Below are positions 7,625 to 63,855 of a DNA stretch of 64,000 nt, piece after piece; the first letter of the stretch is position 1; each line of letters opens with the position of its first letter. The notes below the pieces were generated by a model. The model made no database searches. It was not told where the DNA came from and saw nothing but the letters and a program-made list of their open reading frames with translations. The translations under genes were made by a program, and so were the position numbers. This stretch comes from Protoeuglena noctilucae (Eukaryota): positions 310,001 to 374,000 of the forward strand of contig OY253680.1 of the NCBI GenBank assembly GCA_958009085.1, given 5' to 3'.

Positions 7625-8104
7625 ATGGACCTCACGCAGCAAGTCAAGAATGCCATCGCGACGGCTGAGCTAACGAAGCCGCGCAAGCCGTTCATCTCCG
7701 AGGACAAGGACGTGCGAGCACACATGCAGGCGAGCGCCCCCCAAACCTCTGCCTCTGCCTAAACGTTCCTCGCGCCCGGTTGGGATGGCGAAACAGTGGG
7801 GCAGGCTGGCGCGCATTGGATCAAAGCTACACGCTTAGCCTTTCCCTGTCGCTGCAGGCCCTGCAGCAGCTCTCCAACGGCAAGCCCGTGCCATACGGCT
7901 CGACGCTTCGCATTGTCGTGCATGAGGGGTCGCGGGCACCGCTGCAGCCCGCCCAGAAGGCGAGTGTCTGGCAGCTGGCCGCTGCGGCAACGGAGCTGAG
8001 GCGATGCAGCATACAACAACACCGTTCAGCACTCCGCACGCCTGCAGACGTCGAGTCACCCGGGGTACATCCGCAACGAGCTGGGGCGCTTCTTCACCTC
8101 GTGA
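7625..8104 (+). CDS. CFAP276: Ciliary microtubule inner protein FAP276/CFAP276-like, 87 aa
   Basis: Exons 7625-7729, 7858-7959 and 8048-8104 give MDLTQQVKN...MQ|ALQQLSNGKPVPYGSTLRIVVHEG...QK|TSSHPGYIRNELGRFFTS*. This resembles Chlamydomonas FAP276 as I recall it. Both introns are GC-AG. Confidence 0.85.
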
Positions 8105-8246
8105 TAGGGAGGCAGAACGGGTACCTGATGGAAATTCCAAAGCCGCTGGCAAGAGGGTTTGCTGAAGCAGACCCATCCATGCGTTGTCCCCTGCTAGTTT
8201 CATTGAAGAGTCTACATGCAACTACACCTACACCCTCACGGCGCGT

Positions 8247-9124
8247 TCACTGTCTGCCGGGCGGCGCCCACGCCTGGACCTTCTTCCAGCTCAAGCGCTT
8301 GTCCCCGTTCATCAGGTGCCCCTTGGGCCGGTAGGGCGTGAGGGGGTCGTACCCCTGCTTGTCCACGTGGAAGAAGGGCTTCTGCGTGGGAAGGGAAGAG
8401 ATCAAGACAACGTGACGTGTGACGGCGATCTCTCGACCGAGTTAACCCGCAAGAGAGGCAGCTTGGGGAAGCGCCCAAAGATGCCACGCTCACCGGCCAC
8501 TGGGAGGGCAGGTCGTCCGTCATGTGGTGTAGCCACGCGTGCCACTCGGGCGCCACCATCGAGGGGTCGTAGTCGCCGTACGACTGCATCGCCCGCGGCC
8601 CGTAGATGACGACACGATCTCGGTTCATCTGCGCAGCAGGGCAGACGGGCGCCGGGTCAGCGAACGCACCGTTTCGGCACACATCCGTGCACATCAATGC
8701 GCCTAAGCAAGCGCAAGGAGTTCTGGAGACGCGCGGCGCCGCGCCGGCCGCGCACCAAGGTGCTTCCCGGGTCGCGCTGGTAGTACTTGTTCCCCAGGTG
8801 GTCCGTGCCGACCAGTTTGTACCCCGACGAATGAATGACTCCCGCCTGCGGAAGCACGTCACAGGCGCCCGCGTCTCGCGCTCCGTCGCGCTGGAAAAGC
8901 CTTGCGTTCCCCCGCCCACCCTCGCGCGCACTTGGCGTCCTAGCGCCCGCCATTCGGGCCCCCGCAGCCCGCCAGTCGAGAGAGCTCGCCTGAAGAAGAC
9001 TGCCGTCCAGCAGCGTGAGGCCCGTCCGCAGCTCAGCGGAGTCCACCGTCCTGGCGACAGCCGTGGTGTCCACCTTCGGGTTCAGCGCCTTGGCCATCTC
9101 GGCCAGGCGCTTCAAAAAAGCCAT
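8247..9124 (-). CDS. NDUFA12: Complex I subunit NDUFA12 (B17.2)
   Basis: LVGTDHLGNKYY, RDRVVIY, YDPSMVAPEWHAWLHH and YRPKGH...KKVQAWAPP; 4 exons. Confidence 0.93.
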
Positions 9125-9522: not shown

Positions 9523-12500
9523 ATGGAGGGCGCCGGTGCGGACGCGCACCACGCGCTGAGCGTGGCGCAGCGTGCCGAGCAGGCACGTCGTCGACGCCCA
9601 GCCGGCACCTACGAGGTGCACCAGGACTTCCGCATGTACATGGAGAACAAGGTTGCCAAGCTGCGCGAACAGATGGAGCGGGACAGGCGGGAGCTCGGCT
9701 TGACAGGCGAGGAAGGGCAGGTGCTCACGGCGACCCCCACGGGGGGGCGATTGGCCCGTCTGCCTGTGATGACCGACGAGCATCCGTTCCTTCGCAGTGG
9801 AAAGCGACGTATTCGCAGGCGTGTGCGTGCACGTCAACGGCCACACGGTGCCCTCGCACCAGCAGATACGTCTGCTCATGCTGCAGCACTGCGGCATGTT
9901 TGAGAATTACTTCGACTCGGGCGTCGTCACCCACGTCGTCTGCGCTCACCTCCCGGACGGTGCGCGTGGGACCCTTGGCACGGCCAGCCTTGTCGCGTCA
10001 TCAAACTTGCGTGTGTCGCGCTTGCTGGGACTGCTGCCCACTTCGCTCTGCTCTCCCCGCAGTCAAGCTGAAGCAGTACGCCCAGGCTCGGTCCCCGCCC
10101 ACCATCGTCCGGCCAGAGTGGGTTGTGGAGTCGGTGGCTGCGGGCAGACTCCTCCCCGTCGACCGCTACCAGTTGCAGCGGATCGAGCACCAGCCAGGGC
10201 AGCCCCAGCTCTTCAAGCTTTTGGCAGAGAGGCCCAGGGGGGCCAGGGAGGTACAGCACGAAGCACGTTGGGAAGGCCAACGTGCCGAGGCGGCTGATGA
10301 AGACGGGGAAGGGGGGCAAGGCATCCGGGAGGGTGTGGATGGGGCGAGCGAGTGGGGTGGGTGGGAGGACGACGGGGATGGTGGCGCTGGGGAGCCAGAG
10401 GAGGGTGATGGTACACCAGATGAGTATGATGACGAGGGCAGCGTGTGGCTGGGCGATGACGGGGCAGCTGAGCCAGCTCTGGAAGGCGATGGGGTGTTTG
10501 GCGACAACCACGGTGGCGAGGGCGCCGGTGACTTTGCAGCAAACGACGATGACGGTGGGGATGGTGGCAATGGGGCTGGCGACGGTGGGGAAGGTGTGTG
10601 TGACGGCATCGGACCGGTGGGGCCGTCGGGTGCCGGGGAAGTCTCCGCCCTGTCGCTCTTGGGTCGCCCCTTCCGTGCTTGGGAGGACCCACCGTGGCTG
10701 GCTCCTAAGGCAGAGCCCCGATTCCCACCAGAAGAGCTGCAGAGGATGAGACGAGAGGCCCTGCAAGATCCGAGGTACCAGAGGGCCCTTCGCGTGGCAC
10801 AGGCGAGTGGGAAGCTGTTCGCTCGTGTTGGGTGCTTGCCTTAGGTCCGCTTCATGTTTCGTGGTGCAATGCACAGCCTTGGTTCGACTTCCTGGTGGGG
10901 CACATGTGGTCTCGCCAGGCATTGATCTGGCTGCTGGCGTCGCCGCTGCCGACCGTCAACCGTCCCCGTCACACCTCCCTGCTCCCGCTCAGGAGGCGCG
11001 GGCGGCGTGCGAGGTGCTGCACATGGCGCCGCGTTCGTCTAAGGAGGACCCTCGCTTCGTGGAGACGTATTTCAAAGCATCACGGCTCAGCTTCATTGGG
11101 TCTTGGAAGTCGAGAATCGAGGCGAGGCACTGTGATGGGGGGATACATGTGACACCCACCCATCCTGGGTGTAAGGATGTTGAGACCCCGAGTCGACTGA
11201 CACTGGCACTGTTAACTGTCGAGACAAGGAAGCTTCTGCCCATGACTGCCATCCACGCCATCCACACCCGCAGACCCTGACCCTCTCCCTCCTGCCCTCC
11301 GCGCCCGTCCCGTCCCCCTCGGGACCCCGCACCGTTGTCCACATCGACATGGACTGCTTCTTCGCATCAGTCGCATGCGCGGGGAGGCCCGACCTCCAGG
11401 GCTTCCCCGTGGCCGTGTCGCACTCGGCCAGCGCAACGGGGACCGCGGTGAGTGTGTTGGGGGCAGGGGTGCTTGAGAGGTGGGGGTGACTGGGATGAAA
11501 GGTGGCTGATGGACGGGGTGTGTTGGGGGCAGGAGTGCTTGGGGCGGGGTTGGTGTACTGGGACGGTGCTTGGGGTGACACTGCAGCAACTATGCAAGGA
11601 GGGCCCTGGCCATGCATCCTCGGTTCATGCCGAGATGGCCAGACCGGGAGTGACAAGAGCAATGCCGTATCTGCTGTGCAATGTGTGAGATCACGCAACG
11701 CTGCCCCATCCCATCCCCCAGGACATCTCATCTGCCAACTACGCGGCGCGGGCGTTTGGGGTGCGCGCCAACATGTGGATGAGAGAGGCCAAGGAACTCT
11801 GCCCGCACCTGATCGTCATGCCGTATGAGTTTGACCGGTACCACGCCGCATCGGAGCAAGTCTACCGCGTCCTCATGGTGAGTCATTGTTTGCAGCAAGC
11901 GAGTGTCGGGCATAGACGGTGTGCAGCCCTTGCAGCACAAGCAATAAGTGACAGCAAGTATATCTGCCACAGTAAGTATATCTGCCAACTGTGCCTGCCA
12001 ACTGTGCTGCATACCCTCACACCCGACCCTGTGGCCTGTGACACCGCAGCGGGTGTCCGCGGCGGTGCAGCCCATGTCCTGCGATGAGGCAGTGCTAGAC
12101 ATCACGGGACTAGGGGACCCATGGGAGATATGCGCACGTCTGCGCGCGGAGATTGAGGCACGCACGCAGTGCACCGCGTCCTGTGGCGTTGGGCCCAACA
12201 TCCTCCTTGCACGCATCGCCACGCGCCGGGCCAAGCCCAACGGGTGCGACGGGGGGTGTGCACGTGCTTATGAGCGACAGGGCTCGACACAGCGCATGTA
12301 CTGGCTATCTTTGCCCTTGTTGCCCTCGCAGGGTGGCCGTGATGACGATGGACGAGGCACCAGCCGCACTGGCACCGCTCCCCGTCACAGAGCTCCCAGG
12401 AGTAGGGTATGCCACGCGCCAGAAACTGGAGCGGGCGGGGCTCGCCACGTGCGGCGACGTGCAGCGCGTGGGACTGGCGGACATCCAGCGAGTGCTGGGT

Positions 12501-14435: not shown

Positions 14436-14672
14436 GAGTTTCTCGTGCAATTTATCTTGCTACGAAGAGTGTGTCGTTGTTCCATTCCAATGCACAGCCA
14501 CAGCGGACATCGCAGAGTAACGCCTCACCCTTACGGACGATTGCTATCGCTTTCCTGTCTCCCCCTGTGCCCTTGCTTGTGGTTGATACGGCAAGCAAAG
14601 ACTTCCCTTACTCCCATAGCCATCCATGTCTGCACGCTGTCCATTGAAAGCAAGCGCGTGCTCCAGCACCCC

Positions 14673-16169
14673 TCACACCAGGACCCCCGCATCCCCGGGC
14701 ATGACTTTAGCAATGAAGTGGTCCTTGGTGTCACGATACTCCTCACAGAGGTCACTGGCAGGCACGTAATCCACCAGAAACCCCGCAGCCTCGAGCGCTG
14801 TGAAGAACTCGCCCTCCCCGCGCCCACGCAACTGCACAGGAGATCAAGCAGCACCACGTTCGTTCGGTTCAAGGGGGTCAAAGAGACGGCGAGGGACGAG
14901 CCTGGGGCTGAAAGCACGTGGTTTAGAAGAGATGTAAGGCTAGGGTTTCACCTTGTAAGAGAAGAAGGCGACCGTGTGGGGAGCACACACCATCCGCAGC
15001 GTCTCAATCAGCGCACCGTACGTTTCACGGAGGTACACCACGTCCGCGCCCACCACCACCTCAGGTCGCCCATTGTACCGATCCGCAGGCCTCGCTCCCT
15101 TCTCTCCCACAGTAGAGGGAGGGGTACCCTCTATGACTGGTCCCCTTGCAGGCTCTTCTTCCAATCCCGTCTCCTTTGGGGCATCCCCAGCAGAGGGAGG
15201 GGTGCCCTCCCTGACGTGCCTCCTTGCTGACTCCACTTCTGCCCCGCCATGCCCCCTCCCCGTGCCCAATTCACCCACAGTCCCATCTGCATCCCTTGAG
15301 CCCTCCCCCTGCCCAGCAGCACCCTCCACGCCCCTCAACCCCTCCCTCTCCCCGCTCTCAGCCCCACCCGCTTCGGCCCCATCTGCTCCCCCCCCCTCGC
15401 TCTCCACCACCCCGTCCACTCTCCCACCCCAGCGACACAGGATGTCTGCCACGCCCCGCCCCCACCAGTACACTTCCACCGCGCACGTCCCCGGGCGCGT
15501 CGCGTCGCGTGAGAGGACGCCGTTGCTCTCTGCATTCTCCCTGGCGAGCCCGTACACGTGAGGCAGGTCCATCTGCATCACCCGTGCTCCTGCCCGCGCC
15601 AACGCGATGCCCACCAGCCCGGTCCCGCAGCCCAGCTCCAGCACGGGGACGTCCACCCAGGCACCCAGAGGGCGCACCCTGCAGCCGTGAGCGCAGTGGC
15701 GTCTACGCACGCAGCAATGCGATGGCTGCGACCGGCCCTGGGTTGCAGTCTCGCCTCAGGAGATACTCTACGAGGAGGAACGCTCCTGGCCACGTGACGA
15801 GCCCTACGTTCTGCAGGCCCTCCTTCCGACCAATCTCATCGCCCTCGCTCTCCCGCCGCGCGCGCTTGCCAGGCCGGGGTGCCCCCTCTTCCACCTCAGG
15901 CCCCCAGCTTCGGGCGACGTCGGCATTGCTCGCGCCGCTGGGGCCAGCCCCGCTGTTTTTCGCGTCCTGCCGCACGTCGACGGTGACGTTGCCGTCGAAG
16001 CAGAACGTGCGCAGCTCGGCACACCTGTGCGTGCCTGCGTGGAGGATGTCTGGGAGGTTTTGAGTTTGCACCGCCAGCCAGCTCCCCCGTTCGCGCAGCG
16101 CATGAGGGGAAATCCGCCACCTGCTCGCAGATAGCTGAAAGGAACGATCTCTGTGCCCGTCACCGCCAT
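14673..16169 (-). CDS. METTL21-like (family 16) SAM-dependent lysine methyltransferase
   Basis: VGLVTWPGAFLLVEYL, VLELGCGTGLVGI and VVGADVVY; contains a long Gly/Glu insertion. Confidence 0.87.
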
Positions 16170-19066: not shown

Positions 19067-21657
<2,591 letters not shown>

Positions 21658-22122: not shown

Positions 22123-23171
22123 TCATCCGCTCGTGAAGATGGTGCTGAGCCTTTCGAGGACGAGGTCGCACGTAACGCAGGTCACCGCCACGCCCAGCAC
22201 GTCCATGACGACCTGGATGGTCGTGCCGGCGTTGGCGGGGTCCACGCCCGACTTGGCCAGGGCAAAGGGCAGCGTAGTGCCCAGGGCGATGCTCGTGACG
22301 ACGATGGCAAAGAGGGACTGCAGGGACGCGAAGCAGTACCAGTTAACGGCACACACCGTTCGATACTCTGCATAGCACATGCACACTCGTCTGGGAAAAG
22401 CGTATGGCGAACAGCATGGCATATACAGATACTGTTCGATGACTTGCAAAGCACAGGACGTTTCTGCGGAAGCGACTCGCCATGGAGATGGCGCACGCAT
22501 CCCGTACGTCTCCCTGGGTCAGCCACACCCGCAGGAACCCTGCTGCCGACAGCACTGACCCCAGGACTAGAGCCACGACCACCTGCTGCCTCAGCGCCAC
22601 CAGCATGTCCCGCAGTCTGCGGACAGAGATGCAGAGGAGAGGTGTGAACATGTACAACGACTGGTAGGGCAACTGCTTGCGAACCACATCCTTCGCACCC
22701 GTGCGAGAAGGCCTGTCATCATACAGCTCTGTGTGGCCAGCCCTCTCACCGAGGCTTGTAGCGCCCCGTGGCCAGCCCCCGGATGATCTTGATGGCGGAC
22801 TGGTTGCCCGCATTGCCCCCGGCCCCGACCAGCATGGTCAGGAAGAGGGTGATGACCAGGTGGTCCCGCACGAGGTCTTCGTACTTCTCAAGCACCAAGC
22901 TGCTGGACGACTGCAGGACCAGGAGGCCGAGGAGCCAGCGGCCGCAGTCCCAGGCCTCTGCGAGAGATCGCACGTCGCGCGCGGAGAGAAATCCGGGCAG
23001 GGATGAGAAGGGCGCGGTGGGGTCGACGGGGGAGCACGGAGCCAGGTCCGCGCCGTCGTCGGGAGGCGGGGCGGAGGCTTGCGGCGTCACCACACGCTCC
23101 GCACGACTGCTGCCGGCAGCGACCACGCGCCTCGCGACCTGCGCAGTCCGCACATTGACGGGGCACGTCAT
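22123..23171 (-). CDS. MgtE-type divalent cation (Mg2+) transporter, membrane domain only, putative transit peptide
   Basis: LFLTMLVGAGGNAGNQS and GVDPANAGTTIQVVMDVLG. Confidence 0.85.
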
Positions 23172-23802: not shown

Positions 23803-26800
23803 TCAGGGCGGCCGGCCCCTCGGATCCCCGCTCCCCCGTTCGACCAGGGACCCGCTCCCACCCCCTGCCACCAGTCGACTCCGTGCCATGCTCAGCAGCG
23901 CGTGGCCCGCCGACGCCCGCGCCTCAATCGACGCTGAGTCCGTGCCGCTCGCCTCGCCCGGCAACGGCGCGGTCACCACCCTGAGCACAGCAAGGATCAG
24001 GCCCGACGTCAGGATGCAGACCACGTGTAAAACACACAGACCACCTTAAAGCAGTTGGTCATGTCATGGCCTGAGCTCACCCCGCTTCGCGCAGCTGCTC
24101 GTCCATGCGCCGCTCCCACTCCGCCCGCCCCGGCCACAGCGCCTCCCCGGCATTGTGGTCCGCCCCACTCAGCCCCTCTGGGTCCCTCGGGGCATGAGAA
24201 GCACCCTCATGCGATGCCACCTGCCCATGGCCAGCCCCCGCGCTGCCGCCTCCCTCACCACCCGCGACACACGCACCCACACCCACACCCACACCCACCG
24301 CAGCCCCACCCCGGCCCTCTTGCAGCGGCACGCCCGCCGCAGTCCGCACATCGCTCGCCCCGCCCCAGGCACTAGCCCCTGGGTAACTTGGTCCCCTGTG
24401 GTTCTGCAACCCGTCAGGGTATGCCCTCACAATCTGGTCGTCGCCGTTCTGCCATAACCCCAGGCGCGGGGGCATCATCATGGAGGATGCACCCGCCAGC
24501 ATCGCGGGTGGCAAGGGGTAGCCCCCGGGTAAGTAGGCCCCGCCCTCCGGGACTGGCCCCGCCTCCGCCGCCATTTCGGCCCCGGAGTGGCCCCGGCCAT
24601 CCGCCGCCCAGGAGGGAGCGCCGGAAGGCACGCCCTCGCCTCGCGGGCGCCCGTCCCACCCTGCAGGCACAGCCGTAGCCTTGCTCTCTCGCATGCCAAC
24701 CGAGCCATACGTCACCAGGAAAGCTCTGCATGTACCTCCACCGATACATGTCTGCGTCTCTGACACTCCAAGCGCAGTCGCACGCGTCCTCACCTGCCAG
24801 GTCGGCGCCCGCTGCCGTCCTGGCCATGTGCCCCAGGGCAGCCGCCGCGGGTCCCTCCGGGTGCCAGAACGGGTACTCGGCCGCGAACGTGACGAGGGAT
24901 CGCTCCAGCTTGCCGTGCCGCGACCGCATGCCGTCGGCGGCGTGCCAGGGCGAGCCCCAGTTGGCGTTGCCGTGCCGGCGCAGGTCGAAGGCCCCGAAGG
25001 CGCACACGTCCCCCACGCCCTCCACCGTCACCGTGCTCGCCTGGATGAACCGAGAGATGTCCTCGGCACGCTGCGGGGTGGGGTGATGAAGGGTCGACTT
25101 CGCCGTCAGGGATGGGGCGAAGGAGGGCAGCGTGTTGGGTCATGCCGTCTCAGCCGATCGCCTATCATCGAAGATGCCTTACAATCCCCGGTGCTACTTG
25201 CAGTCATTATGCCGCAGGGCACGCCCAGCCAAGCGTCAGCATGGTGCAGCCGGGGCAGCTGCAACACTCGCCTGTGGCAGGGACAGTGCCAGGACGATGG
25301 GGGTCACGAGCGTCGAGATGAGCTCCTCCGCAAAGGCCATCAGGCGCAGCGGAAAGAGGGACGATATCTCGTCGTGCACCTCCTGTGTGTGCCCCCGGCC
25401 GCGCCACCGGCGGGGGAAGAAGCGCAGGTGGGCAGCCAGCACCTGCAGCACGCCCTCTGCAGGGAGATAGACAAGGGCCCAAGCGTCAGGAGCATGGCGG
25501 GGAGCGACGGGCCTGCGCCACTCTGCCAGACCCGCCTCCCGTGACGCGCTCTCTTGCCGCACTCGCACGCACGGGGTGGCAGTGCCAAAGAACCCACCAG
25601 AGAGCACAAGGGTCATTTCCGCACGCACACCTGGATCGAACATGCGCTCCTCGTCGTCCACCATGGCCCGCGTGACGGCCAGGACGATCCCAAAGGTGGC
25701 GGCCCACCACACAAGGTTGCGGCCCCACAGAGCCCGCTCCAGGAGCACTTCGTCGAGGACAGCCACGAAGAGGAGGACAGCAGCGAAGGAGCCGAAGATG
25801 AAGGAGAGCAAGCGGGCCCTGGGGTGTGGCAGGGGGAGTTGGGTGGGGCGGGTAGATTGGTTGGAAGGGCACAGAGTGGGAAGCAAAGCGGAGCAACAGG
25901 CGGGCCTGTGACCATGCCTACGTGCATGTCACCTACCTGGTTGTGAAGCAAACAAAGCGCGCAAGGGGTGAGCTACATGAAGTGGGGCGCGGGGTGCGCG
26001 GGGTGCGTGTCGCTCACCAGTGCGTGAGGCCTGGGGACTTGAACTGCCCCAGGTACTTGACGGCAGCCTTGGAGGAGCTGACGAGGCGGTTCTGGAGCTG
26101 ATGGGGCAGCTCGTTGAACTCCCGGAACGACCAGTGCGCGGTGGGCGACTGCGGGCGGGAGGCAGGGGACGCGAGTGCATCAGACGCGGGGCGTCGGTGC
26201 CGTCACAGACACAGGGGTCAGGGGTCAGGGATTAGCTCGGTCTGTAGTGATGTAAGTAAGATTAGGGAACAAAAGGGCACGGGCTTGTGCCCGCGATATG
26301 CCTCAGCAACATAGGGATGTGTGGCCAGTCACAGATGCCGCACGCCTCGCGCCACCCACAGCTTACCCAGGTGCGTTCCCCGGCGGAGGACGGGTGGTGG
26401 TAGAATCGCTCCGCGTTGCCCAGGAAGTGGTACATGAGGAGGTAGACGGCGACGAAGGGGGACAGGAACAAGGACAGGGCGGCCGCGGCCCGCATGCGCC
26501 GTCGCAGGGCGGGGGGGTCCAGCGCCTCGCGTCGGAGGCGAAAGGAGTGGGGGTCGAAGGCCGGGTCGAGGATGGTGGAGAAGAGGGACCAGACGAGGGT
26601 CTGGGTGATGAGGGGGCGGCGGGGGAAGGGGCGGAACGGCACGGTCAGGGACAGGACGCCCACGTTGAGCATGGCCACCAGGTAGTTGTCCTTGCGCATG
26701 ATGCGCTGCACGATGTCGTGCGCCGTCAGGTCCTGCGGGAGAGCACGGGAGACCGCGTCGTCTCGGCTGGGTGACGAGCGGAGGACTTGGCAACCGTGCT

Positions 26801-27881
26801 GCACAGGCTCGCCTTGACCACGCAGAGGCGCGTGTTGCGTTGCAGGAGGATGACGCGGCGCAGGAGCTCGGCCCATGTGATGGTCACCATCTGCCGCTCC
26901 GAGATGCCCATCCTGCGTGGCACAGCACGCGTGACGCACTCCGTGCGACAAGTAACAGGACCCCTCCTTCGTTGTTGCTTCGGAAGCACGGTAACGTGAC
27001 CCTGTTCCTCGCATCCCAGCCCCACACGCACCTGTTGGCCACCACCTCGTGGACCTCCAGCGCCCCCACAATGTCGAGCACCGCGTGGGCCGCCTGCCAG
27101 ACCCAAATGGCGGAGAAGATGACGAGGTAGACGGTGGCGGCCGTCAGGTAGGCCCCCGAGTGGAACTTCCACGGACTGGCGTGGATCATGAAGGAGATGT
27201 CACAGGAACCCTGGCGCAGGCACGGGTTCTGCGGGGCAGGGTCGAGATTACGCGCGGTTGCGGAAGAGCTTCGCCGCCGCCGTCGGCGCGTGTCGATTGT
27301 CTGCGCGCGTACCTTCAGCTGGGACCAGTCGACGAAGAGGAGGAGGAACCCGGAGAACAGGATGATGAAGGCCAGGCGGAGCACGGACGTGACGCGCTCG
27401 GTGACGAGGACGCCGAGGCCCCCGGACCGCCAGTACATGTACATGCGCGTGAAGAACCGGTCCAAGTTCGATATGGCGCCCATCTCCCACCTGCGAGTGC
27501 CGTGGCTCGGGAGCACGACTCGGGGCCCACCAACTACGGGCCGCGAGGTCGCGGAGGATGCTTCCGTCAGCGCAGCCTACTGCGCGTATACGTCTGACAT
27601 CAAGACGGTACCCGGCGAAGGGAAGGTCGCGTCAAACACCTCGACAGAGGATCGGCATGGGCGCGCTGGACGGTGGGCATCAAAACGCGGACACGCAAGC
27701 AGGTTCCCGAGCTCCCGCACCTCTCCTCCAGACCAACGAGATCTGGAGCGCCATTGTCGACGTCATCGAGCTTCGGGAGGCCGTAGGCCTGGCTCCCGGA
27801 CGTCGTGCCCGAATCCCACGGCAGGTCCTCGCCCTGCCGCCAGAGCAGGGGCTCTCGGTGCTGCTGCCCAGCCCCGTTCAT
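23803..27881 (-). CDS. ATG9: Autophagy-related protein 9
   Basis: ISNLDRFFTRMY, LCVVK|DLTAHDIVQRIMRKDNY, FRELNEL, VEGVGDVCAF and HGKLERSLVTF; start codon approximate. Confidence 0.95.
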
Positions 27882-32411: not shown

Positions 32412-33187
32412 CTAGCGGCCCGGCGTGATCTCCCTCATGAGAGCCGGGTCCTGTCCCTTGGCAGCGCGGACATACGGGAGGACACGGGCGATGCTCTCGG
32501 CGAAGCGCATGCCGGGGTCCCGCCGGACGATGTTCACCAGCTCAAACGTCACCGTCTTGCTGCCCCTGCGCCTCTGCAGAGAGAACGCAACGAGCGCGAT
32601 GCCGACTTCGACGCGGCTACAGCTGCGGCCGCATGAGCAGGGGCCGCGCTGCACGTTAGGCCTCGCCTTCCCCAGAGGCCGAATCTGGACGATATCCCCG
32701 ACCTCGCAGGCGTCCATCGGGTCGTGCGCGTAGTACTTCTTCGCCCGAGGCACGGCGAAATGCAGCCGGGCGTCCCAGACCCTGTTGTTCTTGGCCACCA
32801 CAATGGTGCGTTCCATCCGGTTGGAAATGACCCGCCCCGTCACCAGCGCCTTCTCTTGCGCCCCCTGGCCCGTCCCATAGTTCAAGACGTTGTGGTATAT
32901 CCGTGGAAACCGGGCGAGGAAGCCCCTGCGACGATGGAGCGACCGTGGCGGTCACGCCGCACGGTTGCGTGGCAGAGGCCACCCCCTCCCGCCTCGCCAG
33001 AGCGCGCAACAACTCCTCCCGCTCGCCTGACGTCTTGCTCCCCACGCATGAACCCCCACATCATGGATGCAAAGTCCGGCTGCCCGCCCAGCCGCCCCGT
33101 TTGGCTCGTCGAGGCCGCCGCCTGCGCTGCCGGCTCAGCCGCGGTGGCGAAGCCACGCGCGGCATTCACGGCCATCCGACACGCCAT
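32412..33187 (-). CDS. MRPS17: Ribosomal protein uS17, probably mitochondrial
   Basis: GRVISNRMERTIVV...KKYYAHD...CEVGDIVQIRP; presequence-like N-terminus (AARGFATAA). Both introns are GC-AG. Confidence 0.85.
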
Positions 33188-38512: not shown

Positions 38513-39892
38513 CGGGGGCGGCCGCGCTGACCTCCGATAGGAAGCGCTGGAGTGGGTCCAGATACTGGCGCTTGAACAGCGGAATGTCTGCGGAGAGTAG
38601 CCAGGGCTCGCAATTCGCAGGTCGGGGGTGCATCACGACGGGTGCGCCGCGCGCCGTGCGGCGCCTCACCGTTGTGCCCCGCTCCCGTGAGCCGCACAAA
38701 CGTCTTGGGCTCCTCCAGAGCCTCGAAAAGCTGCTGTCCGAGCACAAAGGGCACGATGTCGTCGTTGGTGCCGTGCAGGACCAGCTTGGGCGTTCCAGCC
38801 ACCACATCCTTGCAGAAGGACAGCGTCGGGAAGCGCTCGGTCATGCAGTACTGCAAGCGAGAGCGTGGCGGCGTGGCAACGGTGCAACTACAAGCTGCAA
38901 CCGTATTGTGGTGCCCGCAAGGGCAGCGGAGGCACTGAGAGCCAGTGAAAGCGCCGCCCGCGCACCTTGACCGGGAGGAAGGGGTACAGAATTTGACCCG
39001 CGTCGGCGATGCTCGTGAAGGGGGCCTGGAGCACGAGCCCGTCGAACCTCCTCTTGGTGGCCATCCACGTGGCCACGGACGACCCGATGGACTCCCCGTA
39101 AAGGACCACCCGGTCCCCGCGAGGGATCACGCCGCCCTCACGAGCCCACGTGGCGACCGCCTCGCCGTCCAGGTACAGGCCGCGCTGGGAGGGCGCGCCG
39201 GAGGAGCCCCCGTACCCCCGGTAGTCGAAACACACGACGCCGCACCCCAGGCTCTCCTTCAGCATGTGGAACCAGGTCAGGCGGTCGTACCGGTCCCCCG
39301 CGTTGCCGTGCAAGATGATGAGCCAGGTGCGCCTGGGGCCAGAGAGGTGGCGGCGGACTGAGCCGACACACGGGGCAACACGCGCAGCACCCTGGCGGGT
39401 GCCCGGCATGTGCGGCCTCACTTGCTGTCGCCGCCCCTCCCCACGTTGCGCGGGGGTGGCGCCCACGCGTACCCCTGCAGCAGCTCGCCGTCTGCCGTCG
39501 TGACTTGCACGTCACGCACCCCCAAGAAGCCCTCCTTATGCAGCACGTCCTCCGTGGGGCAAGCCTGCGTGCGGAGGCGTGGGAAGCTCGTACGCATGCG
39601 AGGCACAAGCGGGCAGGAACCGACTGGCGCATGGGCCTGCGCTCGCCTGGGTGGAAGGGAAGAAGATGAGCTTCTTCTGGAACACGAAGGCGAGGACCAC
39701 GGCACCCACGTACAGCACGGCCGCCCCCTGGGCGCCGTACACGACGCTGGCCTTGGCGAAGCTCGCAGCCGCCTGCATGAACCGCCCAGCCGACGGCGGC
39801 TTGCCTTCCAGAACGCCACTGCGCACGGCGCCGTAGACGACGGACGCCATGCCGACATAGCGCGCCACCGTGAGGGCGGCGCGGAGCAGCAT
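38502..39892 (-). CDS. ABHD13/BEM46-like alpha/beta hydrolase
   Basis: FQKKLIFFP, HGNAG, DYRGYGGSSGAPSQRGL, GESIG, HGTNDDIVP and GAGHN. Confidence 0.9.
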
Positions 39893-40729: not shown

Positions 40730-43700
40730 ATGCCGGGCTCCGATAGCTACTCCGACGAGTCCTTTGAGGACTATGACGATGACTCCTTTGAGGAATTCGA
40801 CGAGAGCCCTGGCAATGCTACCAGTCCGCGTCCGCCGGCAGCCCGGCAGGCGGAGGTGAGCGCCCGGGACTTGTTGCGCGCGCAGCATCTGCGACATGTG
40901 GCAGCGCCTGCTTTGCCCCGGCGACGCTTTAATGTCAGCCTGACATGATCACGAACCCCGGGCCCGAGATCCCGACCGCCGGGCCGATGCGACGGGCAGC
41001 AAGGCATGCCTGCCCCGCTGCGCGCTGGCCGCAGGCGAACGGCCATGCCCAAGCCAGCATCGAGGACTCGCTAGTAGCTGCCATCCATGCGGAGAACCGC
41101 GCCATTCAGGAGCGCGCCCAGGCCAAGCAGAAGGCGAAACTCGAGGCAGCAAGGCCGCGCGATGCGCTGTCCGTGCAAGCCCAGCCGGGCCAAGCAGGTT
41201 GGTGCCCAGCCGAGGATGCGGACGACGAAGAAGAACGTCTCTTGTGTTCGCGCGGACCCCTCTCTTCTCGCCCACTCCTCGCAGGCGCCGTCAGCCTGTC
41301 TCTGCCCACGCGGGAGCAGCTTGGCCTTTCGGCTGCGGCCCTGCAACGTCGCGACGCGACTCTCGAGCGCTTCCGCCACCTGACGGCGGAGGCGGGGGTG
41401 AAGCTGGCGCCGACGGACCCCCGCACGCTGCTCAGCATGGAGCCCAAGTCGGAGGCGGACCTCAAGCGCCACGGTCACGGGCGGTTCGCGCCGACGAGGA
41501 GCAGGGACGCGGGGGTCACGGCGGGCGCGGTGACTGCGGAGAGCGGGGGGCAGACGGACGAGGTCGAGGGGGCCGAGGCGGAGGTGCAAGTGCCGGAGGA
41601 CAGCATGGGCGTGGGGCAGGCGGTGGCTGAGGCCAGGCCGGCCGCGGGGTTCAGAGGCGGGATGTCTGCGGACGATCCGTTGGAGTCGCCTGGGGTGAGC
41701 GGGGAGGTGTCGCGCCCGGGGCCAGATGCAGAGAGGCTGCGGAGCGCTGGGAGGGCCGAGGCGGGGCCTGCGACGGAACCAGCGGCGTGGCTGTCGGAGG
41801 CGGCGGAGGGCGTCAGGGTACGGCTGGCGGCCATGGTGCCCGAGGCGGCGGGCATCATCTGCCAGGTGGGTTTGCTGCACAAGGCAAGTGCAGGTGGTGT
41901 CTGGCGCTTGCCTGTCCATGCACGCCGCTCTCCGCCTTTTCGACGCAGCTTCTGGACGAAAGGGACGCTCGGCGGTCCCGCCTGCGCCCGCCAGCCGCCC
42001 TGGGCAAAGCGCCGCCCCGCGCCGCCTCCCCCGGGGACCTGCCGCCCCCGCTCCACACCCTGGGACCCGGCCCGGCGCTTTCGGGTCGTCCCATATCGTG
42101 CGTGTGCTTTGCGTCCCCCACCGCCCCCGCCGTGCTCGTCGTCGCGTACCGCCACACGCCGGCGGCCCAGACGAGCGTCGCCGAGCGTGGCTGGGGCTCC
42201 AAGGGCGTCCTGGCCGTGTGGGACCTGGCACGGCCGCAAGCCCCTCGCGCTATCCTTGTGTGCGAGGGGTCGCCCTCCGCCGTATGCTGGGCCGACCCGG
42301 ACGTGAGACTTTGAACACGGTGGCTCGCGCGCCGCTCTCGGGCAATCAAACGCCATCCGCGAGAGTCCTACCACTCCTTTCGCCCCACAGGGTCCGACGG
42401 TGGTGGTGGCTGGCATGGAGGAGGGCGGCCTGTGCTGCTGGGACCTGAGGGACGCGCCGGGCCTCGTGCGACCAGAGGCCCTGGACGGAGACGGCCGCGT
42501 GGTGCACGCCCTGCCCCCGGCTTTCTCCACGGAGGCCGCGCCGTGGGCCACGCACCACGCGGGGGTGGTGGGCCTGCGGAGTCTTGGGGGTGCGGGGACG
42601 CGGGGGAGCGGGGCAGTGACCCCGCTGAGGACGGCGGTGGGGGTCGGGGGCGAGATGGAGGGCGCGGCGGGGCACGTGGCGAGCGCGGACTCAAGCGGGC
42701 GCGTGTGCGTGTGGGCGGTGGTGGAGTCGGCACCGTCGCGTGCGGCGCGTGGGGCCCTGGGGCCTGGGCCCGGGAGAGAGGGCCAGGGCCCCTTCAGCGT
42801 CCTGCGCATGGAGGTCTTGCTCGCGGACGTCCCCCTGGGTCGGGAGGCGCTGTTCCGGTCGGCGAGGTCGGGGCCGGGGCACGACCGTCGCGACCTGGAC
42901 GCGGGGCCGGCAGGGGCGCGGCAGTGGGAGCTGTGCCATGGGATGGAGATGCGGGCGGGGGGTGAGGTGCTGGTGGCGGTGGCGTCGGGGCGGGTGCTGC
43001 GGGGAGCGACGTCGGGGCGCGTGGCGGTGCCCAAGGAGTTTGTGGGAGAGGAGGCGTGGGCGTCCGCGAGGCTCCGCGAGGGCGGGGGGCAGGTCGCGCG
43101 GGCCGAGTGCCGCGCCGTCGCATGCAGTACGGCGCTCCCGGGGGTCCTGGCTGCGGGGTACTCTGATGGATCCGTGGCCGTGTACAGCGACAGGCGAGGG
43201 TGGAGGGGTAGCGAGGGTTGGGCGAGTGGGGGTGCGCGGGGTTGCCGGCGCCCATGCCTCACGCTGCCATGTCGTGCTGTGCGAGAGTGCATACATGGCA
43301 GAGTCCCTCGCGCACGCAGGCACGCCACGCCGCGGCTGGTCTTCCCCGCCCAGGAACCCAGCGCTGTCCGGGCCCTGCAATGGTCCCCCGTCCTGCCGGG
43401 GGTGCTGTACGCCCTCAACAGCGCATCTGTGCTGCACGTCTTCGACCTGCTGGCCGACCGATCGCGGTGAGCATCGCTGTCCTTCGCTGCGGCAAACGTA
43501 CCTGAAGGTGTGGGCGACGCGGCTGAAAGCACCCTCCCGCCCCTGTGCAGGCCGGTCAAGTCCGTCCCGCTTCTCCGTGCCCGCGGCGCCGACAGCCAGG
43601 CTTACGCCACCACTCTCAGCGTGTCCAGGCGGGCAGCCCCAGCCACCGGGCAGGCGCTCGCCGTGCTCGCGGTGGGGATGACGGACGGGTCCTGTGAAAT

Positions 43701-48128: not shown

Positions 48129-50034
48129 CTACTGACCGGGGACGACGGCGAGCCCGGGTGCGCGCACGGCGAGGCCCGCCGCAGCCGCCGACCCCGGGGC
48201 CATGGCCCAGGTGGGAGCGGTCAGCCCCGCCGGGAGGGCCGCGGGGCCCCGCGGCATTGGGGACGGAGAAAGGGGGAAAGACTGGCCCGCGGGAGACGCG
48301 TGGCCCGCGGCCGCGAAAGGGAGCGCGCCCGAGGCGAGCGGGGCCGAGAAGCCCGGCACCGGCGGCTGCGAGGCGCCTGCCAGTTGGATCTTGACGTTCT
48401 GCTGGTACGTGGCCACCATGTTGAGCAGCGCCTGCTGTGCGGCGTGGGGCGTCGAGAGCGTGACGAGGGCTGCGGGGGCGGGGGCGGGGGCGGCGTGAGG
48501 CGGGAAGGCACCGTAGGAGGCAGGGGCACACACCGACGTGGTCAGAGAGCATGGGCAGCCGCGCGCCGCGCTTTCACTCGCCTCCCTTGGTGCCGGCCAT
48601 CTCGGGGAAGAGCACCACGGACTGGATGGGCTGGAAGGCCCAGAAGAGCTGCGCGATCTCCGCTTCGGTCACAACCGGGCTCAGCTCGGACAGCAGGAGG
48701 CTCCGCATGGGCAGCGTGGGGTCCTGAGTCAGGCCCCTGCCCGCGGCGCCGTGGGGGAAGGCGGCCGCGGGGGCCGCGGCGGACAGCGGGAAGGGCTTGG
48801 GCCCGCCCATGGGGCCCCCCAGGCCCAGGGGCATCTGGAGCTGCGCGGCGCGGGCCGCGACGTCCATGCCGAAGGGCCCGGCTGGCTCCCCGGCCATGGG
48901 GCCCCCGTGGGGTACGCGCCGCCTGCGCTTGCGCAGGGGCACGCGGCAGGCCGCCAGTCGGACCATGAGGGGCAGGACGCCCCCCACGGGGACTTGGCCG
49001 TTGAGGCGCTCGATGGCCAGCATGGCCGTGGGCACGTCCGCCATCATGACCAGGCCCGACAGGCCCGGCGCGACGGCCTTCGAGGGCAGCACCCGGCACT
49101 GCAGCACCGGGCCGACCTGGCTGAAGTGCGTGCGGAGCGCACGGTCTGCGGGGGGCGAGCGAACAGGGCGGGGTTCGCTCAATCCGACGCCGGGCTTCCA
49201 CAGACGAGGCCAAGCCCAGCCACGCGGCGGGTGCTCACCGTTCCAAGTCTCAGGAATGTTGGACACGTAGAGGTTGCTGTGCTGCTCCAGCTCGGCGCCC
49301 TGCTGCATGGCGGCCAGGGCGCTCATCATCGAGTTGTCGGGGGCCTGGCCCAGTTGGTACGACGGGAAGAGCAGGCGCTGCAAGGGGGGTGGGGGGGAAG
49401 GTCGGGCCAGGTCGGGCCAGTGCAGGCGAGCTGGTCAGCACAGAGGGCCTGCCGGCGAGCGCGGCACCTGCCAATCGATGTCCACCGCGTTGCCTCCGTC
49501 GTGCATCGCATGGGCAGTGGGGGGGAGGGGCAGGCTGGGAACGCCGCCCGAGTGGACACCCCCCTGCTGGGGACGAGACACGGAGAGCAGTGGGTCAGCT
49601 AGCGGTCCCTCCCACGCAAGGTCTACGGGCATGCTCTCGGGTCGCCGCCTCACCCTGCCCTCCACGGCCTCCTCGCGGGCCGACGCGGCGCCCTTGTACG
49701 GCCACGCCACGTCCCCCTGCCCCGTGGGTGTGGTGCCGCGCGAGATGCCGCCGTCTGAGGCCTCCACAGGCTCCTGGTGCGAGGACAGCGGATGACCCGC
49801 GTGCCCGTCGCCGAAAATCTCCTTCCACGACGCGATGTTCAAATCTGCAGGGCCAGAGGCGCGAGGGGGCTCGCGCTCGTCTCGGCTGTGCGAGGCGGCG
49901 GGCCGGGCACTCGTCGGCGCGGAGGCGGACGGGCCCTCGCCTGTCAGCTCCGTCGACGCCTCCGAAGCATCGGCTGAATTGACTGCCGTCCCCGCGGACG
50001 AGTCCAGCGCAAAGTTGGACCACAGGCTGAACAT
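48129..50034 (-). CDS. RNA-binding protein with two RRMs
   Basis: NLYVSNIP...HFSQVGPVLQCRVL...AIERLNG; second, divergent RRM LLLSELSPVVTEAEIAQLF. Confidence 0.8.
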
Positions 50035-56143: not shown

Positions 56144-57491
56144 CTACTTGGTCGGGTTGGGGCGCGCCTCCTTGTAAATGCCAGCCTCTTCGGTCGCATA
56201 CACCGACACCACTCCCCCCTCCATCTCCTTGTTGATGCTCCGCAACGTTTCCTTGAGAGCGGTGTCGTCCGTCAGCCGACTCCCCAGCCGCCTCTTCGCC
56301 TCCCCTTGCACCTGCGCCAGTCGGGCGGCGGTGTAGCCCCGGAGGAGCAGGAACCCCACCTCTCCGCTGGCCAGCGTGATGACCAGCCCCCCCGCGTTGC
56401 TGCCCGTGACTTGGGCACGCAACGCCCCGCGCCCCTCCGAGCGACCCCGACCCTGGCGGCTCTTCTTGTTCCGTATCTGCCGCGCCCGGCGCTCGTCCCT
56501 GCGGCCGACATTTCACCAGGGAGCCGCGTCTCCCCGCTTTGTGCCCGCGCCCTCCCCAACAGATGCCAGGTAGCAACTGGGACGTGCGACGCACCTCTGG
56601 AGCCCCGACACGTCAACGCCCGGCTCTGGCGCCTTGAGAGGTTGGTCGGGCTTCACAGCCTTTCCAGAGAACTTGATCTGCCGCCCCGTCAGCGAGTCCG
56701 TCTTCTCTTCGTCCATCCCAAACGCCTGCCTCTTGTATACAAGCGAGCTAGCCCGGAGCCCCTCCTGCGCGTAGCCGTTAAAGGACTTGCTCAGATGGGC
56801 ACGTTCAACTCGGAAACCTCTTGCTCGCGAAGCACGGCGTAGGTGGTGCGACGCTTGGTCAGGGCAGGGCAGTTGCAGGCAGCCTCGCCTCTGTCTCGTC
56901 GGTGTACTTCTGCCCCGTGCCCTTGGGAGCCCGGCCCTTGTTCTGTCGGAGGACGCTGTGCGACCGCTGCCGGAAGTCCACCGGGGCAGGTGTTGGAGAG
57001 CTCGTCCCCACGTCGTCCCTGCCGGGGTGTACGGGGAGGGGGCGAGGGTGCCACCCGTGCTCCAGCGAGCAGCCCTGGCGCGCGGTAGCCTGAGCAGCAC
57101 GTCACCTGCTGGCCACGGTGCTCTTTTCCTGAAGTCGGGTAAGCCCGGAGCGTCGGGACGCCTCCCCTACCAGCTCCTCAAACTCGCTGCGCAGCGCAGC
57201 CTCGCGGTCCACCTCAGGTGGCAGCGACCGAAGGAGCTGCCCCTCCGACACCTCCCCAAAGCCGTTGAGCTCCAGCTGCTGGCGCAGCACCTCAGGGCGC
57301 TCCCCGATCATCGCGCCGAACTGCGCGTACGCCTCGAGATCAGCCGCCTCGAGACCAGCGGCCGATGGTCGTGCCGATGGTCGCTCCGGACCAGCTGCAG
57401 CTCGGGCATGGCCGCGCCGTCCGCACGCAGCGCGCGAGGATGTCGCATGGAGACGGACATGCAAAGTCAGCGCCGAGCTCATCGCGGCCAT
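56144..57491 (-). CDS. Hypothetical protein with putative transit peptide and C-terminal S1-like segment
   Basis: 4-exon model; RAQVTGSNAGGLVITLASGEVGFL resembles the S1 motif. Confidence 0.55.
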
Positions 57492-60910: not shown

Positions 60911-60999
60911 AGGCATCAATTGCACCGGCCATTCTGCTGAAACGGGCGGCAGGCGCGGCGGGGCAACACCGTCACAGCAGCAAGCAGGCAGCCCGTCGT

Positions 61000-63855
61000 C
61001 TACTGGCTCTTGACCTTGGCCTTCCAGGGCTGCGCACGGTCCCGGCACAGCACCGGCCGGGTGGTGGCCCGGGTGCCCAGGAGCCGCAGCGTGCCCAGCA
61101 CCACGGTGCCCAGGACGAGCGGCCCAATCACCCACTTCTGCGTGCCAGCGAGATGCCGGGGGACAGGTGGCAGTGCAAAAGGCATGGGACTGCATGGCGA
61201 CCGGGGCAATCATGCAAGCGCAGGTGCATTGCCCAGTAGCGCAGGGTCACCAGGGCCGCAGGCTCCTGCATCGTGGCCAGGGTGAGGGTCGACAGGCCCC
61301 GCGCAGCGTACACGCGCGTCGCCAGGTTCCAGGACCCGACGGCTACGAGGGCGGCCGCCAGCATCGCCGCCGTGGGCGCCATGCTCTTGGCGCCCAGCCC
61401 GGCGGGCGCGGGGGCCGTGGACCCGTAGCGCCCGAGCAGGAGGTCGAGGGCGTCCTGCTTGACACCGTCGCTGAAGGTGTTGAGGTAGTAGCGCGACAGC
61501 GACTTGTACCCGTCGTCCATGAAGCCCGAGAGGGACCGCTTGCCGGTGCGCACGAACCCCGACTGCGGGCGCGGGGCGGGCCCTGTCGTGAAGCAGAGCA
61601 GCCCCAGAGAGTCCTTCTCAAAGGCGCCAGGGAAGCGCGAGCGGCCGCCACCTTGAGGGCCCCTGTGCCCGCGTAGAGGCGCGAGACGGCGTCCCCGTGG
61701 TCGGCCCAGAGGTGCTTGACGTCGCGGAGGAGCGCGGGGAAGACGTCCTCCATCGCCGCGCCCATCTGGGCCACGGCGGGGCCCCCCTCGACACCCTTGC
61801 GGAGGAAGTCAGTGTTGGCGAGGAGGTTCTCGAGCGCGTGCACGGCCAGCATGGTCTGCACCACGTTGGTGCGGTCCAGGCTGTCGATGCAGTTGGTGCG
61901 GAACACCCCCGCCTGGTACGTGACCTTGGCCTTGCCCGCCTCCGTGCCCGGGGGCGCAGAGGCGCGCCTCGAGAAGGCGCCCATCTTGACGAATTCGGGA
62001 CGCACGCGCGCAAATAGCTTCTGGGGTACGCGGGGGAGGGGCTGAGCATGCGGCCTGGGGTGGGTTCGTGCTGGAGGGGCACGGTAGGCGCAACCAGGCT
62101 CACCTCCAGGTTGCCGTACTTGGTCGCGCCGCACTCCTTGTGGAAGTCGAAGTTGACTAACTGGAAGGCCGGGGAGCGCTTCTCGAAGTTGGCCGCCGCA
62201 GCCTTGTAAGCGTCCGACACCTTGCCCTCGCCTTTGCCCGGCTTTAACCCCGCCAGGTTGATGGCGACCACGCTCTGCGGCGGCGAGAAACAAGCAGGGT
62301 CCTGTGCACATCACACGTGTCGGCTGTGCGGCGCGTTAGGAGAGCGGGCACCCGCCCTGTGCGAGCAACGGCCAACCCCACGGACCTGGTACTTCTTGAT
62401 GAGACCCTGGGCGTGGGCGTCGAACGCCGCCTGGCTGAGGTCCGCGGGGGCGAACGCCCGCTTCGGCTTGTACATGAGGTTGGGGACCTCCGACCACAGC
62501 ACGGGCGCCGAGCCGCGAACCTGGAGGCGTAGGGTGGGAGTCATCAGGCGATCACTAGGTGGGGCACGGGTGCAGCAGCGTCGATGGTACGCAGCCGCGT
62601 TGAACAGCACCGGGGCCCTCGCCTGGACGAAGGAGCTGACGAGGTTCATGTCCCGGATCTCCACGATCATCTCGGACTCGACGTGGTTGGAAGCGTTGCC
62701 CTCCAGGTCCAGCCCACGCGACCAGTGGCGGGTCCCGGCCCGGCTGACGTCGCGCCGCGCCACCAGCGTCACCACGACCTCGGACGTCTGCAGGGGTTGC
62801 CCGGGTCGCGCAGCGTTGGTCTGCTAGGAGCGCCCGAGTTCATCCCAACGTGCCCAGGGGTCATGCCTTATCGCCAGGCGTACCTTGGACCCCGCCGCGA
62901 GGTTCTCGCTGATCTGGCCCACGAAGCCCTGCACCACGGCCACTCCGAAACCCAGGGCCCCCGCCTCCCGCAGGGGCTTCAGCAGGTGGTGGTTCCAGGT
63001 GAACTTGCCTGCGGGGCATGGTACGCAGTCAGGCTCAGTGAATGAATTGCGCGAGGGAGGTGCGGCAGTGGCCGGCCACAAAGTCACCCGTGGCACGTGC
63101 CGCCACGCCCTCCTTGCCCTCCCCCATGTCACGTGGCCCGAAGCACTTCGTGCTGTCGCCCTTCCCGGCCTTGTCCTGCTCTTGCATGGACGTCGTGAGG
63201 TCGTACGTGGGAGAGAAGAAGGTGTCCCTGCAGAGGAGAGCGGAGCTGTGGCCGTGGCGCTCGCCAAAGGGCGGAGCGGCACGCGACCCAAGGACGGCAG
63301 CGAGGGGCACCTCATCAGGAAGGACGTGTCCATGGCGCGGCGGAAGAGGCTCGCGATGGGATCCCCGGCAGAGGGGCCGTAGACGGCGACTTCGGTCACT
63401 TTGAGCAGAGGGTGGTCCCCGAGCAGCCCGACCTTGATGGCCTGCGAGCGCCGGGTGGCCCCGAGACTGCGCATCCACGCGACCACACTCGCGCACACCC
63501 CGCAGCCTCTGACAGCCGCGGGATTTGTGCATGCCGCGCACCTGGCGAATCACTGCCACCGCGCACCCATTCCGCAGCGGGAGGATGCCCAGGAGGCCGT
63601 GCACCGGGATCTCCGAGGTCGCCGACCCCACCGAGAACTTCTTGTCCGGCCGGAACGTCGCAGACGCCTGCGATCTCCCGCGGCGTCGAAGTTTGGGGCA
63701 GTCCCTCCAGAGACGGGCCGCGTCCGCCCGCCTGGCGCTGCGCAGCGCGACCAGCTCACCGATATCTTGCTCAAGTCAATGGAGAGCACATCTGCCTGCC
63801 CCGAGCCCTTTATCTCCACCACCCTGCCGTCCGTCCTCAGCGTGAAGCCTGCCAT
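61000..63855 (-). CDS. SAC1: SAC1 phosphoinositide phosphatase
   Basis: GTRHWSRGLD..GNASNHVESE, SFVQ|VRGSAP, FDFHKEC, RTNCIDSLDRTN, SRYYLNTFSDGVKQD, two TMs and a Lys-rich C-terminus. Confidence 0.95.

Follow-up and report, generated by a model that had tools for sequence, protein, structure and literature searches.

In a 64,000-base stretch of Protoeuglena noctilucae (contig OY253680.1, positions 310,001 to 374,000; hereafter, the window), with 66.6% G+C and zero N, we found that introns starting with GC instead of GT and ending with AG (GC-AG introns) represent roughly one fifth to one third of all introns, a window-based share for this GC-rich, intron-rich marine green alga. The excess had been noticed before from the letters of the same stretch (the sequence-only reading); it is confirmed as real, and it had been understated. 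These are probably genuine U2-type introns, in which GC-biased substitution has changed the second intron position (+2) where strong pairing with the U1 small nuclear RNA (snRNA) compensates for the mismatch.

Reality of the GC-AG introns

The sequence-only reading had claimed at least 15 introns starting with GC (Table 1), 14 of them with the donor GCGAG and 14 following an exonic AG. GC at the start and CAG at the end were confirmed in all 15 intervals, and both counts were borne out, the respective exceptions being the donor at 19347 (GCAAG) and that at 22480, which follows TG. As RNA evidence we used contigs of four marine metatranscriptome runs (X9, X10, X11, and X12; one study, three samples at most). 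Among public sequencing runs, both metatranscriptome and DNA runs from marine samples were found to contain the window sequence. The contigs were aligned over positions 7500 to 27499 (20 kb, one third of the window), a span that covers nine of the 15 claimed introns. Six of these nine are removed from the RNA with precise borders, base for base (Table 1). They are found among the 15 joints listed of 37, each resolved inside its stated alignment ambiguity, and in all six GC-AG is the sole canonical placement within that ambiguity; none can be redrawn as a GT-AG intron with a nearby donor. The other nine listed joints are GT-AG, and the 15 joints listed of 37 do not include the claims at 11122, 15679, and 19347.

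Three extra GT-AG junctions (17437-17521, 27491-27720, and 7352-7534) were obtained from contig pieces and loose ends, and GC-AG introns amount to 6 of the 18 RNA-supported introns. The junction at 7352-7534 corresponds to a 183-nt intron on the plus strand (cag/GTGTGA, the slash marking the exon-intron border), in the 5' untranslated region of the small gene at 7.3 to 8.2 kb, and was derived from an RNA loose end that matches 7319-7348 in three runs. The loose-end sequence at 10596 was absent from the window and added no junction.

Pfam profiles were scanned exon by exon and their continuity was read across junctions, which supports two further claimed introns without RNA, 62521-62622 (Syja_N) and 38192-38278 (UBD). 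Within the RNA-supported set, an ATG9 homologue on a metagenome contig (L002) aligns without a break over the spliced 26733-26812 junction. The evidence for the seven remaining claims is frame logic. In eight claims without RNA, the codon score was positive on both sides of the intron in exactly one phase. Translation through the intron runs into a stop or shifts the frame in seven of these eight, the exception being 32574-32666, in frame and stop-free. The Ribosomal_S17 profile (1-54) ends three residues before the donor of this last intron, which may instead be retained as a 31-residue insert. At 19347-19454, the upstream exon extends one residue beyond the KATNA1_MIT match (profile positions 5-54 of 64), and at 48470-48581 a weak RRM_1 match (3-33) ends six residues before the exon end. 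For all 15 introns, the claimed donor-acceptor pair outscored every other frame-compatible pair within 60 nt; with +1 and +2 unscored, the strongest GT alternative trailed it by 3.1 to 17.6 nats.

Most gene names given in the sequence-only reading agreed with Pfam, namely NDUFA12, IMS (REV1-like), Methyltransf_16, KATNA1_MIT with AAA, MgtE, ATG9, Ribosomal_S17, UBD, RRM_1, and Syja_N, while "FAP276" and "S1-like" had no Pfam match.

We give almost no credence to an artefact, in which the intervals would not be introns or the true donors would be nearby GTs, AGGCGAG being just a common string at this GC content. The string is indeed common. Using dinucleotide-preserving shuffles of both strands, 16.2 ± 3.9 copies were expected in 100 shuffles (16.8 ± 4.1 when repeated with 200), so the motif alone proves nothing, and it is the RNA, Pfam, and frame evidence that carries the claim. 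Also in favor of an artefact are the seven claims based on frame logic alone, the two claimed introns that are in frame and stop-free, and one low-depth X10 contig (15618-15870) that passes unspliced through 15679-15754. However, contigs of this run enter or cross both GC-AG and GT-AG introns without being spliced (15618-15870, 24713-25015, 26235-26482, and 12549-12795), and since those at 24713-25015 and 26235-26482 enter GT-AG introns, the read-through of 15679-15754 is not evidence against that intron. The X10 metatranscriptome contains pre-mRNA or DNA, and its read-through contigs are unusable against any intron. On the other side, an artefact is refuted for the six introns skipped exactly in RNA contigs, two more have profile continuity, for each of the 15 the best GT alternative scored at least 3 nats lower, and the 38 copies of AGGCGAG observed, a number reached by none of the 100 shuffles, are a 2.3-fold excess (21.2 copies; z 5.1).

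Frequency of GC-AG introns in the window

To count introns across the window we used our own gene finder, a two-strand dynamic programming procedure that combines codon log-odds with donor and acceptor weight matrices, was trained on the same window, and scores T and C at +2 neutrally versus background. It predicted 123 introns in 28 genes, including 31 GC-AG introns, and recovered 15 of the 16 RNA-supported introns then known and 13 of the 15 claimed introns; the part of the katanin gene around 19347-19454 was left uncalled. By these gene models, gene density is ca. 1 per 2.2 kb, with ca. 4.4 introns per gene. The best named protein matches are from green algae and plants (40 to 45% identity for an aminotransferase and 55 to 60% for RRS1); for the aminotransferase, a protein atlas gave only bacterial clusters. 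Once known errors were fixed and the two claimed introns that the gene finder had left out were included, the corrected census contains 30 GC-AG introns among 123 (24%), and a strict subset contains 16 among 69, one of the 16 being a known false call. The sequence-only reading, which had put the share at over 10%, was right in direction and too low in size, our estimates being 22 to 33%.

The donor classes were compared by the total parse score, which was 1771 nats with GT donors only and rose to 2124 (a gain of 353) when GC was added. The decoy donors GG and GA, added instead of GC, gave 1823 (gain of 52) and 1797 (gain given as 25), respectively. With GC and GG both permitted, the parse picked 29 GC versus 7 GG donors. 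Allowing only GT, it recovered 8 of the 16 RNA-supported introns, lost the other 8, and split genes. GC donors are thus a real class, with perhaps six to eight false calls per donor class judging from the decoy runs.

Some introns are invisible to calling based on open reading frames (ORFs). The aminotransferase ORF 43985-45325 (minus strand) is open throughout, and the protein database holds its unspliced 437-amino-acid translation (P0001). Aligned with a homologue from Micractinium, the protein has two insertions, each matching a GT-AG intron that is in frame and free of stops, 44348-44500 (153 nt) and 44901-44984 (84 nt); our gene finder caught the first and missed the second.

Table 1. Claimed, extra, and predicted GC-AG introns of the window; the extra and predicted ones are additions to the 15 named in the sequence-only reading (exon letters in lowercase; the slash marks the exon-intron border)
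Positions	Strand	Status	Donor	Length (nt)	Gene	Evidence
7730..7857	+	claimed	cag/GCGAGC	128	small gene (named FAP276 in the sequence-only reading; no Pfam match)	RNA joint in X9, X10, X11, X12
7960..8047	+	claimed	aag/GCGAGT	88	same gene as 7730..7857	RNA joint in X9, X11, X12
8846..8989	-	claimed	cag/GCGAGC	144	NDUFA12	RNA joint in X9, X11, X12; NDUFA12 Pfam matches on downstream exons
11122..11273	+	claimed	gag/GCGAGG	152	REV1-like	frame logic only; IMS domain begins in next exon; predicted by gene finder
15679..15754	-	claimed	gag/GCGAGA	76	Methyltransf_16 (METTL21-like)	frame logic, read-through stop; best frame-compatible pair
19347..19454	+	claimed	cag/GCAAGA	108	katanin p60	read-through stop; weakest site scores of the 15
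22318..22480	-	claimed	atg/GCGAGT	163	MgtE family	RNA joint in X9, X11, X12, ends CT..GC
25071..25271	-	claimed	cag/GCGAGT	201	ATG9	RNA joint, ends CT..GC; ATG9 profile 449 to 451
26733..26812	-	claimed	aag/GCGAGC	80	ATG9	RNA joint; ATG9 profile 149 to 153
32926..33026	-	claimed	cag/GCGAGC	101	uS17	frame logic only (frame shift, coding flanks); predicted by gene finder
32574..32666	-	claimed	aag/GCGAGG	93	uS17	in frame, stop-free; best site pair
38192..38278	+	claimed	aag/GCGAGG	87	UBTD-like	UBD (PF16455) profile 71 to 73; two read-through stops
48470..48581	-	claimed	gag/GCGAGT	112	RRM protein	frame logic, stop at read-through codon 3; predicted by gene finder
56765..56888	-	claimed	gag/GCGAGG	124	gene without Pfam match	frame logic only; no GT alternative above -7.6
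62521..62622	-	claimed	cag/GCGAGG	102	SAC1	in frame, stop-free; Syja_N 210 (last residue of exon) to 211 (first of next)
2365..2493	+	extra	cag/GCGCGT	129	reticulon	Reticulon profile ca. 40 to 41 across; predicted by gene finder
39565..39646	-	predicted	cag/GCGAGC	82	alpha/beta-hydrolase	gene finder only; strong site and flank scores
49845..49940	-	predicted	cag/GCGAGG	96	RRM protein	gene finder only; in frame, stop-free
43194..43319	+	predicted	cag/GCGAGG	126		gene finder only; in frame, stop-free
9707..9797	+	predicted	cag/GCGAGG	91	REV1-like	gene finder only; within the RNA span, not among the 15 joints listed of 37

Donor context and its possible causes

GC donors depend on an otherwise consensus context. 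When the census introns were sorted by their matches to AG/G.GAG at the five positions other than +2, donors with all five matches were 20 GC and 13 GT, those with four were 6 GC and 56 GT, and those with three or fewer were 4 GC and 24 GT; perfect donors therefore differ sharply from all others (20:13 versus 10:80; Fisher P = 9e-8). The same was seen in the RNA-supported introns (17, without the later-found GT-AG intron 7352-7534), where GC appeared in five of seven perfect donors versus one of ten others (P = 0.035). Overall, matches were more numerous in GC than in GT donors, both in the RNA set (6 versus 11; Mann-Whitney P = 0.007) and in the census (30 versus 93; P = 4e-6), with mean donor scores, leaving out +1 and +2, of 5.0 and 3.6, respectively. 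At +4, A was found in 25 of the 30 GC donors and C in three. Independently of the gene finder, excess over shuffles was found for AGGTGAG (9.2 copies; z 3.1) as well as for AGGCGAG, while motifs mismatched at +4 were in excess by 24.4 copies (z 3.9) in the T form and by only 2.1 (z 0.2) in the C form.

The share of C at +2 in perfect donors (20/33, 0.61) was indistinguishable from the C/(C+T) ratio of 0.613 measured on the sense strand of intron interiors (10,580 nt; binomial P = 1.0). Conversely, donors with four of five matches (6/62) fell far below this neutral value (P = 3e-17). In other properties, GC and GT introns were similar in phase, with median lengths of 118 versus 106 nt and G+C of 0.676 versus 0.653. 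CAG was the acceptor in 118 of 120 cases, and neither a U12-type donor (RTATCC) nor a TCCTTRAY branch box was found in the 123 predicted introns.

From these patterns we infer that drift with compensation is the cause of the GC donors and that U1 is unchanged. U1 snRNA would still recognize a donor with a C-A mismatch at +2, given that -2A, -1G, +1G, +3G, +4A, and +5G are all consensus, and the acceptor side would be an ordinary CAG. Substitution in the genome would be strongly biased toward GC, by mutation, by biased gene conversion, or by both. In an otherwise perfect donor, a change from T to C at +2 would cost little or nothing, and the position would drift to the neutral intron composition of ca. 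61% C, while in donors with another mismatch selection would retain T. Among the two alternatives put forward in the sequence-only reading, GC-biased T>C drift at GTGAG donors fits both the split between perfect and other donors and the neutral C share, while a variant U1, U6, or U1-C is not needed, and the strict context dependence argues against it. A U1 that paired with C would need no compensation elsewhere in the donor. The canonical U1 carries ACUUACCU and the canonical U6 box is ACAGAGA; the 64-kb window gave no Rfam match at all, to an snRNA gene or otherwise.

A broader version of the latter alternative, a lineage-specific spliceosome with relaxed or altered recognition of +2 (through the U1 5' end, U1-C, U1-70K, base modification, or U6/Prp8) that handles C and U alike, seems unlikely to us. 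In animals and plants, GC-AG introns stay near 1% although many of their donors are strong, which counts in favor of a changed machinery here. So does the match between the C share of perfect donors and neutral composition, since in a population assumed to be very large it hints at close to no fitness cost; for this reason, and because 20 of 33 is a small sample, altered machinery keeps some weight. U1 small nuclear ribonucleoprotein (snRNP) proteins or base modifications have in fact been proposed for other algae (Iwata and Gotoh 2011, PMC3033335). However, GC donors nearly vanish with a single additional mismatch, both in the census and in the motif excess, which is the signature of a compensated mismatch, and the U1 5' ends are canonical in Aureococcus and both Micromonas, as described in the same paper (PMC3033335). 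Altogether, the donor-context pattern favors compensation plus GC pressure over an altered snRNA.

Introners, i.e., intron-generating mobile elements that would have imported the GC donors, provide a precedent in Micromonas pusilla, with nearly equal genomic GC and a nearly equal GC-AG share (22.2%) caused by them (PMC3033335, PMC3879977). In addition, one gene of the window (3868-7019) has five introns of 163 to 166 nt. However, these five are all GT-AG, and an all-against-all BLAST of the 123 predicted introns, restricted to the window, gave only three non-self matches, of 18 to 21 nt. Ten introns of similar length, once aligned, had a mean column identity of 35%, and the donor consensus is GYGAG and not the GYGCGT of the IE-A1 introners. 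We therefore regard this origin as extremely improbable. The gene in question (minus strand; DnaJ, zuotin-homology, and C2H2-jaz finger domains) has six predicted GT-AG introns, and those of nearly equal length (3976-4139, 5236-5399, 5598-5763, 5964-6128, and 6381-6543, all predicted) have no sequence similarity. In the whole window there are seven introns of 163 to 166 nt, and the 160- to 169-nt class comprises only 9 of 123.

It is also very unlikely that GC donors are selected as deliberately weaker sites for regulated splicing or intron retention. Nothing in the window speaks for it, and the precedent comes from Emiliania huxleyi, in which GC donors accompany high intron retention (PMC4028052); RNA contigs such as ours cannot measure retention. 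The C share equals and does not exceed the neutral expectation, and GC introns are found in housekeeping genes of all kinds (NDUFA12, uS17, ATG9, and SAC1).

Several points weigh against drift with compensation, or against the numbers on which it is built. The GC-biased substitution is deduced from composition alone, and a neutral level of C in a plankter with a large population could also mean weaker discrimination of +2 by the spliceosome. The interval around 20/33 is wide (ca. 0.42 to 0.77) and leaves room for moderate selection at +2. The census depends on a self-written gene finder trained on the window itself, and this program preferred a false GC donor at 26345 to the GT at 26366 that RNA supports, proposed two GC "introns" (12988-13384 and 13441-13625) that are both crossed unspliced by an RNA contig, and missed at least one GT intron, the in-frame 44901-44984 revealed by homology. 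Finally, the RNA covers only 20 kb and consists of contigs of one study, with 15 joints listed of 37.

Comparison with other lineages and meaning

A GC-rich alga with abundant GC-AG introns belongs to a kind already known, and the excess in GC-rich algae is published. The sequence-only reading set the excess against about 1% in most eukaryotes (1.3% across 61 species; PMC3033335), without noting that it had already been described for GC-rich algae. Thus, values of 39.6% were given for Aureococcus anophagefferens, 22.2% for M. pusilla CCMP1545, 7.7% for Chlorella sp., and 2.7% for Micromonas RCC299 by Iwata and Gotoh (2011, PMC3033335). These authors tied GC-AG introns to G+C, described the U1 5' ends as canonical, and regarded the origin as an "enigma". 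Two pelagophytes have 14 to 17% GC-AG introns, also together with high genomic GC (bioRxiv 10.1101/2024.10.30.620910). For Aureococcus, Chlorella, and the pelagophytes, a GC-rich genome had already been put forward as the likely cause. The window shares with them a high GC content (66.6% in the window; ca. 64% or more defines this class), a GC-AG share far above 1% (22 to 33% within the window), and ordinary AG acceptors, but it belongs to another lineage, with ca. 4.4 introns per gene versus 0.13 to 0.92 in the pelagophytes. The dependence on donor context and the match with neutral composition that we see here are not reported in the passages of these sources that deal with Aureococcus, Chlorella, and the pelagophytes.

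The closest parallel in numbers is M. pusilla CCMP1545, a marine green alga with 65 to 66% GC and a nearly equal share of GC-AG introns. There, however, the excess has been traced to the repeated IE-A1 introners, 53% of which carry GC donors with the consensus AG/GYGCGT (Verhelst et al. 2013, PMC3879977), and the genome has 0.91 introns per gene (PMC13213038, Table 1). In contrast, the introns of the window are unique sequences with an AG/GYGAG donor and are about five times denser. The same table gives less than one intron per gene for Micromonas, Chloropicon, Pseudoscourfieldia, Ostreococcus, and Bathycoccus (PMC13213038), compared with ca. 4.4 in our gene models. Nephroselmis pyriformis, with 64.2% GC, has 0.27 genes per kb (PMC12718437). 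Another GC-rich marine alga with abundant GC donors and an AG acceptor is E. huxleyi (Gephyrocapsa), whose genome has 65% GC and 56 to 65% GC donors (Feldmesser et al. 2014, PMC4028052). These donors were validated by RNA-seq, expressed sequence tags, and reverse transcription-PCR, the acceptor is nearly always AG, and the authors credit GC content (PMC4028052). It is a haptophyte, with GC as the majority donor, whereas in the window most donors are GT, and GC is restricted to perfect contexts.

The GC-AG introns of animals and plants are also U2-type, and their GC donors have a profile of their own outside +2, one that is stronger than in GT donors. The difference lies in the frequency, 20 to 30 times higher here than the ca. 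1% found there. Among the matches listed in a literature search, with subscription journals and supplements outside its scope, we found no report of a GC-AG excess for other green lineages (prasinophyte, Chlorophyta, Chloropicon, Prasinoderma, Pycnococcus, Pedinophyceae, and Tetraselmis).

No close relative for an orthologous-intron comparison appeared in one metagenome scan, which gave only a contig of 45% GC (L001) and the distant ATG9 homologue of L002. The latter (L002:1700-6600; 62.8% GC) has ca. 55 to 65% identity, more introns, and at other positions; it has no intron at the position of 26733-26812, and all eight donors readable by eye beside the alignment ends look like GT.

Regarding other features of the window, one RNA contig (14307-14831) bridges the 3' ends of the convergent REV1-like (plus strand) and METTL21-like (minus strand) genes, and their transcripts seem to meet or overlap. 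Poly(A) loose ends place the ends of plus-strand transcripts at 14665 and 8221. An enkurin-domain gene (28518-29741, plus strand) is spread over three exons whose profile coordinates follow on from one another (1-26, 29-68, and 69-90), and its presence, together with katanin p60, suggests that the organism builds a flagellum or has a flagellate stage.

The window adds an intron-rich green alga, with no introner family detected within its 64 kb, to the short list of algae rich in GC-AG introns. In practical terms, gene finders that insist on GT would mis-model about one quarter of the introns in this organism. What bears on the "enigma" of Iwata and Gotoh (2011) is the quantitative pattern, i.e., that +2 is at neutral composition in perfect donors and nearly always T otherwise.

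A stronger version of this pattern can be proposed only tentatively, and we consider it possible but doubtful. It holds that C and U at +2 are functionally equivalent when the other five U1 contacts are perfect (C share of 0.61 to 0.70 versus the neutral 0.613), and that one more mismatch makes U nearly obligatory. To our knowledge, such an all-or-none tolerance at +2, if true, would be sharper than any known in animals or plants. If it held genome-wide and the population were very large, the spliceosome would impose no measurable cost on the +2 mismatch. The alga would then be a natural system for asking what sets +2 discrimination (U1-C, U6, Prp8, or snRNA modification), and its composition would give direct selection coefficients on single splice-site contacts.

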